A stretch of 29,019 nucleotides of DNA, taken from a virus (lineage: Duplodnaviria > Heunggongvirae > Uroviricota > Caudoviricetes). The position numbers are program-made. Shown here one piece after another: positions 12,001 to 15,000 of the stretch; position 1 is the first letter of the stretch; each line of letters starts with the position of its first letter. The stretch spans positions 1 to 29,019 of the IMG/VR virus record IMGVR_UViG_2579778660_000004; one strand, written 5' to 3'.

Positions 12001-15000
12001 GCGCCGGGCGAAAAGTCATGCCCAGAAGTGGGAGCGAGTTTGCGCCGCGCTGCGGGAGCTGAACAAGCACCGGGATATTGTCCGACAGATTGTCGATTCC
12101 TCCAGTCGTATTGTGTCGGAAAAGTGATTCCTGGGGAGGGCTTATGGCAAAAGTATTTACACAGGAAGAGCGAGAAAAAATTAAAGGGCAGATTGTTGAT
12201 CTCGTACGCCAGAGCGGGCGCGAGACGTTACGACAACTGGAAGCTAAAATGGGGGCAACCAGATATCTGATAAGTATTCTCGCCAAAGAGCTGGTTTCGA
12301 GTGGTGAAGTATACAACTCTGGCTACGGGTTATTCCCGTCAGAACAGGCTCGTAAGGACTGGCAAAACGCCCGCAAAAAACTCTCAAGGGCAAAGGTGAA
12401 GAAAACGGCTGTGGTTGATCCGGACCTTATCAGGTCATTACCAGACGGAGAAATACGCCGCTACGATAGGCGTCAGAACATAATTTGCCGTGAGTGCCGG
12501 AAAAGCGAAGTTATGCAGCGTGTACTGGCGTTTTATCGGGGAAACTTTCAGGAGGTGCTGTTTTGAGCCAAATTAATAATCGGAACTTCGTGAAGTGAAA
12601 GAGAAAGCATAATCCAAATCTGAATAATTAAATTCAGCACTGTGAATAAAATAGAGTCCTTAACCTGAGGGATTTCTGCACCCTCAGAACAGCAGGAGGC
12701 CGCCCGAAAGGGCGGGGGAGATAATAATGGAAATAACTAAAGAACGATTATTGGAAATAGCAAATCTTAGTGATAGGGCATTAAGTGATGGGAGAATTAT
12801 TTCTCCTGATGCTTATGAATCAGTTACAAGTATAGAAATAATAACGATGGCTAGAATGCTTCTTGCGCGCTTCAAAGAAGAATATAAAAAACAGGTAGAT
12901 AGCAATGCTAATATATATGATACTTTGGACAGTTGGGGAGCCTGGGCTGTAGCTGGAAATAGTTCTATTGATTGGCAGGAAATAGCTGATAAATATAAAA
13001 ATGTTGTTCCTCATGGTAAAAAATCACGTCGTCAGTGCAGCAATGATGAAGGGCGAGTTATTGACATTAGTATCCTTAGGTTAGAAAGATATAAGCAACA
13101 AGAATATGAGTTAATTGTTGCTCATTTCGTGATTGGTTTATCTCTTCGTGCTATTGCAAAACAACAAGGATGTTCAGATGGAACAATTCGTAAAAGATTG
13201 CAAAAAGCCTTAGGTTTTTTGACTGGATATATAGCAATTACCAGTTAAGAGTCAGCGGGTTTTTTACCAGTGTAATGGTATAAGGATACTCCCATGTGTC
13301 TTACATGATATGGAAGTGCTGTTGCTGGATGCTTTGTGATACTCTTAAAGCGGAGGGGAGAGCCTTCCGCTTCAATTTCTGCGTCCGAAACGGTCGTAGA
13401 GAAAAATTCTTTCCATTCATTGAATTTTACTGCTGATTTGTCAGACTTTATATAAATTAGAATTCCTCCATGATCGTCACGTGACGTACCCGTGCCGTAA
13501 CGTTCGGTTAGCTGAATCCAGCCATTATGAATAGATTTTGGGCCTCTCCATAATTTTGCTTCACCGATCCATTCGAATTTTCCGAATTGATGTTTAACTA
13601 ATAAATCAACGTGACCGCCATGTTGAGTATCATGTTCAACATCATAAAACCTACCTTTCAGGAAATTTTTGATCGACGCTGTTAGCTCGTCCTCTCCCCA
13701 CTTAGCATCTTGATAGAAGTGTTTGTCATTTTCTAAATTCTGAATAGCGTCGTCTAAATCTTCATAGAGTTGCTTTACAAAAATATTTTTGTCTGCAGCT
13801 AATTTTCTTTGAACCATTCCCCTAAATTCAGGATCCATTCTAATTAATGATTGAAGGTCTGCAGTACAGATGTTTACATCACTCATGCAGACTCTCCAAA
13901 AGACTCGAAGGAGTAAAGTATGGATAAAGATACTGGCTAAAATTATCAACCAATTCGCCAGTTTCTGGATGGTAAAAACTTCCTGTGTCTAAAGCATAGG
14001 AAATAAGATCATCTTCAACTGGTATTGGTTCTTCCGTTAAATTATCCATGTATTGAAAATGCATATCCAATAGGTGTGCTTTATAGCTAGATAAATAATC
14101 AGTTGCTTTTATTAGCAGGATATAGTCATCTTTCGTATCAGTTAGATAGGTCAAACCATTGATAAGGGTTTTGTATGTAAAGTGATTGATATTTTTAGCA
14201 TCTTTACTAACCAGAAAAAGAAAAAGATCACGACACACACTGCGAACAGGATCATTAAAATCCTGCTCTATTTGCGTGATAATGTCGTGATATATACTCT
14301 TTTTCATTTATGGCCTGATGATCTCGCTCTTCTTTTCTCTTCACAGGACTTAACAGAATCCAATATTTTTTCAACAATAAATATAATCGAATCAATGTTG
14401 TTACAGTTCTTCGCAATTGCTTCATGCAACCTAATTCTAGGATTATCAAGCATTGTCCTTTTCCCTGGTAATATTAACTCTACTGATAAAATATGTGAAG
14501 AACTTTGTGGTAAATCCCAAATTTTTCCCAACTTAAACTTTGTCAATATTGGGCTTGCGGACTCTCCACTATGATGGTAAACATCTTGACGCAAACACTT
14601 TTGACTTGGTTTGAGTTTTAAAGAACTTGTATTGCCATCTGAGGTGATAAAAGATACATGAGAAATTCTGCCATCTACTTTTTCGTAAAGATCTTGTATT
14701 GAACCAAATAACTCAAGGGGATTGTTTAAAATAACGCCAGCTTCTTTTTTTATAAATTTAGCCACAAGGTATTGTTGAGGCTGTGATTCACTTCTTGGAA
14801 GGATAGATAAATCAATCGTAAGAATTAATATTTTTTCTGCAGGCATTAGCATGATGGTATTAAAGCATTGCGTGACTTGGCGTGTTTTGCATTTTATTTC
14901 TCCACCATTAGCACGTAATTCCATACCCGCATCGCTAAGATGTGTTGGGTCAAGCTCTATCACTTCAGTGTAATACGCTTTGGATAAAAAAACAGCAGTG

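Follow-up and report, generated by a model that had tools for sequence, protein, structure and literature searches.

We analysed a 29,019-nucleotide stretch of DNA (the window; positions 1 to 29,019 of IMG/VR record IMGVR_UViG_2579778660_000004, Caudoviricetes), which is a Rac-like lambdoid prophage at ttcA and is identical (100% match) in Escherichia coli STEC367. At 12727-13248 on the + strand it carries a gene of the Q antiterminator family that we call long-form Q, or long Q. This gene is one of the three parts of a module, the others being convergent cargo genes and a distant 12-bp site, GCGTACGCAAAA; in the long-form lineage the module lies between the replication genes and hok. Four marks set this copy apart, namely location in the early region, loss of the late-promoter parts, a palindromic site over the predicted cargo promoter, and an N-terminal addition. 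On balance, and with modest confidence, we favour the view that long Q is a Q derivative that acts at the predicted cargo promoter via the palindromic site. Family membership, module architecture, the coupling of Q to the site, late-promoter loss and purifying selection on the gene are firmly seen. The parts of the module in the window are as follows.

12727-13248, +: long-form Q-family gene, 173 amino acids (aa), ATG start (Pfam, PHROG and PDB matches)
12727-12909, +: lineage-specific N-terminal extension, codons 1-61 (present in all long forms)
12910-13248, +: Q21-type domain, codons 62-173, including a sigma-region-4-like helix-turn-helix (HTH)
13245-13838, -: gene C, 197 aa (open reading frame (ORF) and RefSeq)
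13879-14307, -: gene B, 142 aa (ORF and RefSeq)
14304-15395, -: gene A, 363 aa, ATG at 15395 (ORF and RefSeq)
15449-15478, -: predicted sigma-70 cassette promoter, -35 TTGCGT (15478-15473), 18-bp spacer, -10 TAAACT (15454-15449) (sequence)
15469-15480, +: GCGTACGCAAAA, candidate Q-binding element, 12 bp (comparative sequence)

A Q-family protein with an added N-terminus

An earlier note on this DNA had described the gene as an extra, QuuD-like Q homologue, and the profile searches confirm the family. PF06530 (Phage_antitermQ) matches residues 62-171 over profile positions 3-112 of 118, at 108.7 bits and E = 2.1e-31 against a cut-off of 26 bits; PHROG 79 ('anti-termination protein Q-like') matches the 173-aa protein at E = 6e-34; and structures of phage 21 Q (6p18, 6jnx) match residues 66-145 distantly (E = 1.4e-3). 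In E. coli STEC367, RefSeq labels the ORF 'antiterminator Q family protein'. The QuuD label is right as to Pfam family but not as to closeness: identity to a QuuD-like Q is 33%, and that to the Qs of mEp460 and Stx1a phages is ~60%. A Pfam search gave no match of the 173-aa protein to the lambda-type Q profile (PF03589, Antiterm), and matches to Sigma70_r4_2 and r4 just under threshold (24.9 and 19.8 bits).

Database relatives split into two groups. Long forms (170-185 aa) occur in E. coli and Salmonella prophages, are 65-99% identical, and all share the N-terminal 61 residues; short forms (113-122 aa) occur throughout the Enterobacteriaceae, with ~60% identity across the Q domain. In the phage collection, records of mEp460, Stx1a-converting and Klebsiella phages name the short form Q, and no record has the long form. 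Searching with the N-terminal extension alone returned only fragments or truncated long Qs, and tblastn of the extension on short-Q loci found nothing similar, which leaves unsupported the idea that long Q arose by fusion with a small ORF upstream of short Qs. Directly 5' of the 113-aa short Q of mEp460_4F5 is a 329-aa gene labelled 'Phage antitermination protein Q'; this label may be an annotation error, because a DUF968 protein holds the same position in another locus.

In an alignment of long and short forms, S139, R141, G152, R155 and K156 are invariant or nearly so. S139 and R141 align with S93 and H95 of Q21, and G152, R155 and K156 with its recognition helix H6; the DNA-reading role of S93/H95 and H6, and the RNA-polymerase contacts of Q21, are known from PMC6606751. 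The constancy of HTH and DNA-reading residues across both forms fits recognition of one shared core site.

The long-Q gene is under purifying selection. The pairwise ratio of nonsynonymous to synonymous divergence (dN/dS) is 0.10-0.41 over the Q domain, at synonymous divergence (dS) of up to 1.2, and mostly 0.25-0.48 over the N-terminal extension; almost all of the 40 long-Q loci examined have an intact ORF. Divergence climbs towards the 3' end, where the final 15-20 codons vary with the cargo. One long-Q and one short-Q locus have in common a 75%-identical block that starts ~144 nt inside Q and stops ~58 nt before the site. Because this block starts inside Q and the 3' codons follow the cargo, we conclude that cargo is swapped between loci by recombination within Q.

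A short exact site beyond the cargo

The motif was first exposed by comparing the window with Stx1_499, a short-Q locus, as a shared 12-mer just past the first cargo gene. In the window it is 2.2 kb from the long-Q gene, beyond the opposing three-gene cassette, and occurs in a single copy even when one mismatch is allowed. Together with the T at 15468 it forms a perfect 10-bp palindrome, TGCGTACGCA (15468-15477). All 24 loci of a first set have the motif exactly once, on the + strand. An independent set of 80 viral contigs was found by protein, and in 76 of these a single exact copy follows Q at 0.64-3.0 kb; of the remaining four, two end too soon after Q, one carries a variant with 2 mismatches, and one lacks the motif. 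The reverse test agrees, in that a Q gene lies upstream on the same strand in 73 of the 75 contigs that were found by the 16-mer TAACGCGTACGCAAAA and have enough upstream sequence to be counted. These counts of loci are inflated by relatedness, and distinct contexts were therefore counted separately. A 12-mer is expected by chance ~0.002 times per 16 kb.

The flanks of the site are unrelated from one cargo type to another, and exact conservation amid such flanks indicates a protein-binding site. Given that Q is the sole protein common to all loci and that its HTH residues are invariant or nearly so, we infer that GCGTACGCAAAA is the Q-binding element of the subfamily. In the literature we found no description of the motif, nor of a hotspot whose flanks are a regulator gene and its own target.

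The TAA stop of long Q (13246-13248) overlaps the stop of gene C (13245-13247, -) by the 4 bp noticed earlier (13245-13248). From this overlap it had been argued that a qut/PR' site has no room downstream and that the gene is therefore unlikely to be the late activator; this reasoning does not stand. Across the subfamily, the site is never adjacent to the gene; it lies 0.6-3.6 kb downstream, with cargo that is mostly on the opposite strand in between, as does the window copy at 15469-15480. In Salmonella and Erwinia prophages, QuuD-like Qs whose stops overlap in the same way with that of a gene-C homologue are at the canonical late-Q position, directly upstream of lysis genes. A Q gene without an adjacent qut site is thus not inactive on that ground alone.

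Varied cargo between constant flanks

Every long-Q context examined has the same order: Q, immediately followed by minus-strand genes, then the GCGTACGCAAAA motif, then hok. The module of the window also occurs in E2348/69. The cargo falls into six gene-content types.

Type 1: A-B-C cassette
Type 2: 477-493-aa protein and NA37 protein
Type 3: 406-aa protein and NA37 protein
Type 4: DUF6731 and 159-aa membrane protein
Type 5: 241-aa and 182-aa proteins
Type 6: 311-aa and 199-aa proteins

Short Qs bring about ten further types, for ~16 architectures in all between Q and the motif. In short-Q slots, PADLOC matched KwaB of Kiwa, PD-Lambda-5_A and NsnA/PD-T4-2_A. KwaB is accompanied by a 173-aa partner and PD-Lambda-5 by a methyltransferase, and in one slot the DUF262 protein that gave the NsnA/PD-T4-2 matches is beside a HEPN-like nuclease and a Dcm methylase. 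With constant flanks, varied cargo and some known systems, the slot from Q to the motif is a prophage defence hotspot. A locus in Klebsiella phage ST846-OXA48phi9.1 is among the defence-bearing slots.

The A-B-C proteins of the window match PHROGs 9664, 11490 and 12777, all of unknown function, and PADLOC gave no convincing match on the cassette. Gene C encodes HVDLLV...IGEAKLW, which reads like a PD-(D/E)xK nuclease motif and is conserved in the Stx1_499 homologue, a protein of 35% identity. The association suggested earlier between the Q-like gene and this cassette is not specific. Distant collinear A-B-C homologues (23-35% identity) stand beside the short Q of Stx1_499; in Salmonella and Erwinia prophages A-B-C lies between a QuuD-like Q and holin genes, with the same overlapping TTAA stops; and in Yersinia its surroundings are unrelated, with a very large polyvalent protein as neighbour and no Q.

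Late-promoter parts in short-Q loci and their loss in long-Q loci

Each of the 15 distinct short-Q contexts has the site as TAAC-GCGTACGCAAAA. A -10-like hexamer (TATTGT, TATTAT or TATCGT) follows two or three bases after the site, and after it come a leader, GTTAAGAGTGG, and an intrinsic terminator; the late genes are just beyond. Stx1_499 has no Q besides the short one, and there stx1AB and the lysis genes come after the site, leader and terminator. We infer from these layouts that the short forms are the canonical late Qs and that their site region is the late promoter and qut. Lying just before the -10-like hexamer, the element would sit between -35 and -10, as does the Q binding element in the late promoter of phage 21 (PMC6606751).

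Long-Q contexts differ. None has the leader, and the hexamer position is degenerate, with no conserved -10-like hexamer; the base before the 12-mer is T in 8/8 distinct long-Q contexts, completing the palindrome TGCGTACGCA in each, and C in 15/15 short-Q contexts. In the window, a terminator scan found no terminator-like site between the motif and the insertion sequence (IS) element. Of a qut/PR'/tR' arrangement, the core element is therefore present at 15469-15480, and the -10-like hexamer, leader and terminator are absent, as they are in every long-Q locus. Nor does long Q mark an early/late boundary, since it sits between DUF977 and hok, in a nin-like region. Remnants (ACTATCTAA in the window, and a TATTGT shifted by 1 nt) indicate that long-Q loci descend from the canonical layout and then decayed.

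Further downstream, the gene that had been put forward on position as the prophage's own Q, followed by a terminator, proves to encode a DUF1133 protein.

18690-19232, +: DUF1133 gene (DUF1133, 341 bits; PF06530, weak, 26.7 bits; PHROG 753 'Q-like')
19229-19257, +: promoter-like TTGATT-17-TTCAAT 3' of DUF1133 (sequence)
19310-19339, +: intrinsic-terminator-like hairpin (terminator scan and sequence)

A search for a qut-like site and promoter 3' of both genes, as proposed earlier, thus yields a promoter-like site for DUF1133 and, for long Q, the core site but not the late-promoter parts. The DUF1133 gene is 5.4 kb downstream of long Q, and ~110 nt 3' of DUF1133 genes, a stretch that takes in the promoter-like site and the terminator, are conserved among six loci; its product is the credible positional late regulator of the prophage. 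Because the -10-like hexamer, leader and terminator are absent from the long-Q locus and DUF1133 has its own promoter-like site and terminator, long Q is very unlikely to be the late-gene activator; the earlier opinion to that effect holds, on these other grounds. Long-Q prophages carry positional Qs of three types: DUF1133, lambda-type PF03589 and a 229-aa Q. The DUF1133 promoter-like spacer contains TACGCA (19238-19243), the same six bases as in one half of the long-Q palindrome, and the DUF1133 leader has ACGC again (CTACGCTTCGCAAAG). This raises the question of cross-talk between long Q and DUF1133, the 6-mer by itself not being significant.

A predicted cargo promoter over the site

The predicted cassette promoter lies ~47 nt upstream of the gene A ATG (15395), with a predicted start near 15442. 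A spacing of exactly 17 or 18 bp between TTGCGT and a TAnnnT hexamer is seen in 15 of 16 distinct short-Q contexts and 7 of 10 distinct long-Q contexts, and any other spacing in 0-3 contexts. Because TTGCGT is inside the site and the spacing of TAnnnT is position-specific, the site appears to overlap the -35 of the cargo promoter. In canonical loci, the cargo promoter and the late promoter, both predicted, would stand back-to-back. Geometry makes antitermination leftward from the cargo promoter unlikely, as the site is at -35 to -26 and the sole -10-like hexamer of the leader at ~+16.

A putative off-switch for the prophage's own cargo

To our knowledge, how prophages stop their own defence genes from disturbing induction is largely unexplained. 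On the reading we favour, long Q would be made from the early rightward operon upon induction, would bind TGCGTACGCA and would modulate the cassette promoter, in the simplest case by blocking its -35. The prophage's own cargo would thereby be switched off, head-on transcription against early-to-late read-through would be removed, and the late genes would be left to the DUF1133 protein.

A broader version, which we consider possible though clearly less probable, is that the Q-binding element doubles as the -35 of the divergent cargo promoter and so forms a two-way toggle between 'defend' and 'lyse'. As the convergent genes have no terminator between them, transcripts of the cargo would continue into Q in the antisense direction in the lysogen, and any Q then produced would turn off the cargo promoter and turn on the late genes. 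The long form, having lost the late promoter, would be kept solely as an induction-coupled off-switch for defence genes, with its N-terminal extension adapting it to the palindromic operator.

Several points weigh against long Q as a regulator of the cargo promoter. The binding of Q to the site, the direction of regulation and the timing of expression are deduced from comparative sequence, and the cargo and late promoters are consensus-level predictions. The palindromic T could reflect the shared ancestry of one lineage instead of selection. Long forms retain W73 (equivalent to W26 of Q21) and L129 and I143 (equivalent to I83 and I97 of the flap-tip groove); retention of these contact positions suggests that long Q has kept its engagement with RNA polymerase, something a simple repressor could do without, and makes an RNA-polymerase-dependent mode of action possible. 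AlphaFold2 on a 78-sequence alignment gave a mean confidence (pLDDT) of 56, too poor to confirm the fold or to read the extension. Of 5426 complete E. coli genomes, 68 carry the long form; most related prophages are without the module, and frameshifted or split copies exist in some genomes.

Other accounts fit less of the evidence. It is unlikely that long Q is a working antiterminator that loads on RNA polymerase starting near 15469-15480 and takes it, resistant to terminators, through hok, the nin-like genes and DUF1133, restarting the early operon after the opposing cassette. Such a role would suit the + strand site, which is oriented as in canonical loci, and the conserved RNA-polymerase-contact positions, and a spacerless convergent cassette with a weak hairpin and U-run after the Q stop would make a restart useful. 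However, no long-Q context has a -10-like hexamer at the canonical offset, a conserved leader or a nearby terminator; no + strand sigma-70 promoter-like site or pause element was found at the motif; and the hok promoter, 60-90 nt downstream, is too far for loading of the Q21 type, in which the Q-binding element is between -35 and -10 (PMC6606751). Slightly less likely again is an inert relic, a leftover of a donor phage's block of Q, cargo and qut without present function. The decayed late-promoter parts, the frameshifted or split copies, the lack of the long form in the phage collection, and the IS insertion and pseudogenes of this prophage would all be expected of a relic, but the near-universal intactness of the ORF, dN/dS well under 1 at high dS, the conserved N-terminal extension, and a 12-mer kept exact amid unrelated flanks in six cargo contexts would not. 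The earlier proposal of a donor-phage relic is thus borne out as to origin in a phage-type Q module, and the purifying selection on the gene speaks against the rest.

We regard it as improbable that long Q, expressed in the lysogen, occupies the Q-binding element or the polymerase of superinfecting phages of like Q/qut specificity and so blocks their late transcription. Having kept the DNA-reading residues of short Qs it should recognise TAACGCGTACGCAAAA sites, it is located in a defence hotspot, and its extra N-terminal domain could disable loading; against this, no promoter of its own is evident, the cis site over the cargo promoter is left unexplained, and the idea is purely speculative. 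Least probable of all is that long Q serves the A-B-C defence candidate as its dedicated sensor or regulator subunit. The 4-bp stop overlap and the adjacency of A-B-C homologues to Q genes in several lineages would favour it, and the distribution already contradicts it: long Q flanks five other, unrelated cargo architectures, and A-B-C occurs beside a different Q subfamily without the motif and, in Yersinia, without Q. For these reasons the cassette is autonomous and Q is not one of its subunits. Of the earlier suggestion of a regulatory or sensor component, the regulatory link survives as the best reading and the A-B-C component does not; long Q flanks the hotspot and probably acts as a regulator at promoter level.

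Relation to known systems

The short-form Qs of mEp460, Stx1a-converting phages (e.g., LC567825) and Klebsiella prophages resemble long Q in belonging to PF06530, in ~60% identity over residues 62-171, in their HTH residues, and in having the same GCGTACGCAAAA core downstream with opposite-strand cargo between gene and site. Unlike long Q, they do not have the 61-aa extension, stand at the late-Q position, and are served by TAAC-GCGTACGCAAAA with a -10-like hexamer, GTTAAGAGTGG and a terminator. The Q of phage 21 (6P18, 6JNX; PMC6606751; bioRxiv 10.1101/651190) is of the same Pfam family and has a sigma-region-4-like HTH. Q21 has as its site a TGAGCA direct repeat next to the gene (PMC6606751), whereas the long-Q core is palindromic, kilobases away and without resemblance to it; unlike the Q21 locus, the long-Q locus has no pause element or terminator. 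QuuD of DLP12 and QuuD-like Qs share the Pfam family with long Q at 33% identity, and those of Salmonella and Erwinia also face A-B-C with a 4-bp overlap, but they are without the GCGTACGCA motif and directly upstream of lysis genes.

The defence hotspots of P2 prophages and P4 satellites (PMC9122126) are like the Q slot in having conserved flanks and varying contents. The Q slot differs in that its flanks are a regulator gene and that regulator's own DNA target, the latter overlapping the predicted cargo promoter. AlpA of Pseudomonas aeruginosa (PMC7969949, PMC9371919) is a precedent for a Q-like, promoter-loaded regulator of genes other than late genes, although it belongs to a different protein family and its antitermination has been demonstrated, with a terminator downstream; no terminator was seen at the long-Q locus.

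A textbook antiterminator family thus appears to be wired to a defence-cargo promoter via one short exact site, and the derived form seems to retain only the wiring. If confirmed, this would be a case of an antiterminator turned promoter-level regulator, and it would supply both a candidate binding element and a candidate late promoter for a Q subfamily that is widespread and uncharacterised, members of which govern toxin expression in Stx1a phages. A Q gene together with GCGTACGCAAAA would also be a simple rule for finding the defence hotspot in enterobacterial prophages.

RNA features around the long-Q gene

12597-12726, +: upstream leader, ~130 nt (alignment of upstream regions, six loci)

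The leader accompanies the long-Q gene across different prophage backbones in the six loci aligned. It holds a palindrome, CTGAATAATTAAATTCAG (12620-12637), hairpins at 12665-12687 and 12700-12715, and a GGAG Shine-Dalgarno sequence; the second hairpin is GC-rich, has a GAAA loop and is immediately 5' of the Shine-Dalgarno. The fold of the leader (-27.5 kcal/mol, z -1.7) is not significant, and the hairpins are kept only in part among loci. A put- or nut-like reading of the leader was dropped on both these counts, and the palindrome has the wrong spacing for a LexA box. A promoter scan and inspection of the sequence of the upstream region revealed no convincing sigma-70 promoter for long Q, and an Rfam scan of the window detected sok and RalA only, with no known RNA element upstream of the long-Q gene.

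Just past the Q stop codon, and within the final part of gene C, is a composite hairpin followed by a run of six Us (13205-13265, +). At -15.6 kcal/mol (z -1.3) it is statistically like shuffled sequence; hairpin and U-run could act as a weak terminator of early rightward transcripts.

Prophage setting

The left part of the prophage carries, in order, intR, xisR, ralR, recT, recE, kilR, a repressor gene, ydaS/ydaT-like genes, replication genes, DUF1627 and DUF977. The long-Q ORF (12727-13248, +) and minus-strand genes C, B and A (13245-15395) follow, and beyond the cassette are hok/sok, IS421, DUF1367, YbcO/DUF1364, DUF1133 (18690-19232), two toxin operons around the lysis genes, and terminase.

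15537-15894, +: hok/sok locus (Rfam sok, 91.7 bits, and sequence)

The hok/sok locus consists of a promoter-like TTGGCT-17-TCGAAT (15537-15565), the hok leader and sok (15572-15744) and the hok ORF (15739-15894). It is the invariant right-hand neighbour of every long-Q module and is also found 3' of the motif with other cargo types. The RalA antitoxin RNA of the RalR/RalA system is at 1557-1735 (Rfam, 218.7 bits), as in Rac. IS421 (16088-17206) sits between hok and DUF1367, RefSeq calls the replication gene at 9466-10590 two partial pseudogenes, and it marks the small terminase gene as frameshifted (L001 24502-25445). Because of the IS421 insertion and these replication-gene and terminase defects, the prophage may not be inducible to full particles.

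Two AB5-type toxin operons, at 19620-20838 and 22192-23332, are located on either side of the lysis genes. One encodes a pertussis-like ADP-ribosyltransferase and a subtilase-family B subunit, and the other an enterotoxin A-family gene and a B gene, LT-II-like. Prophages that encode a pertussis-like toxin in addition to LT-II are known.

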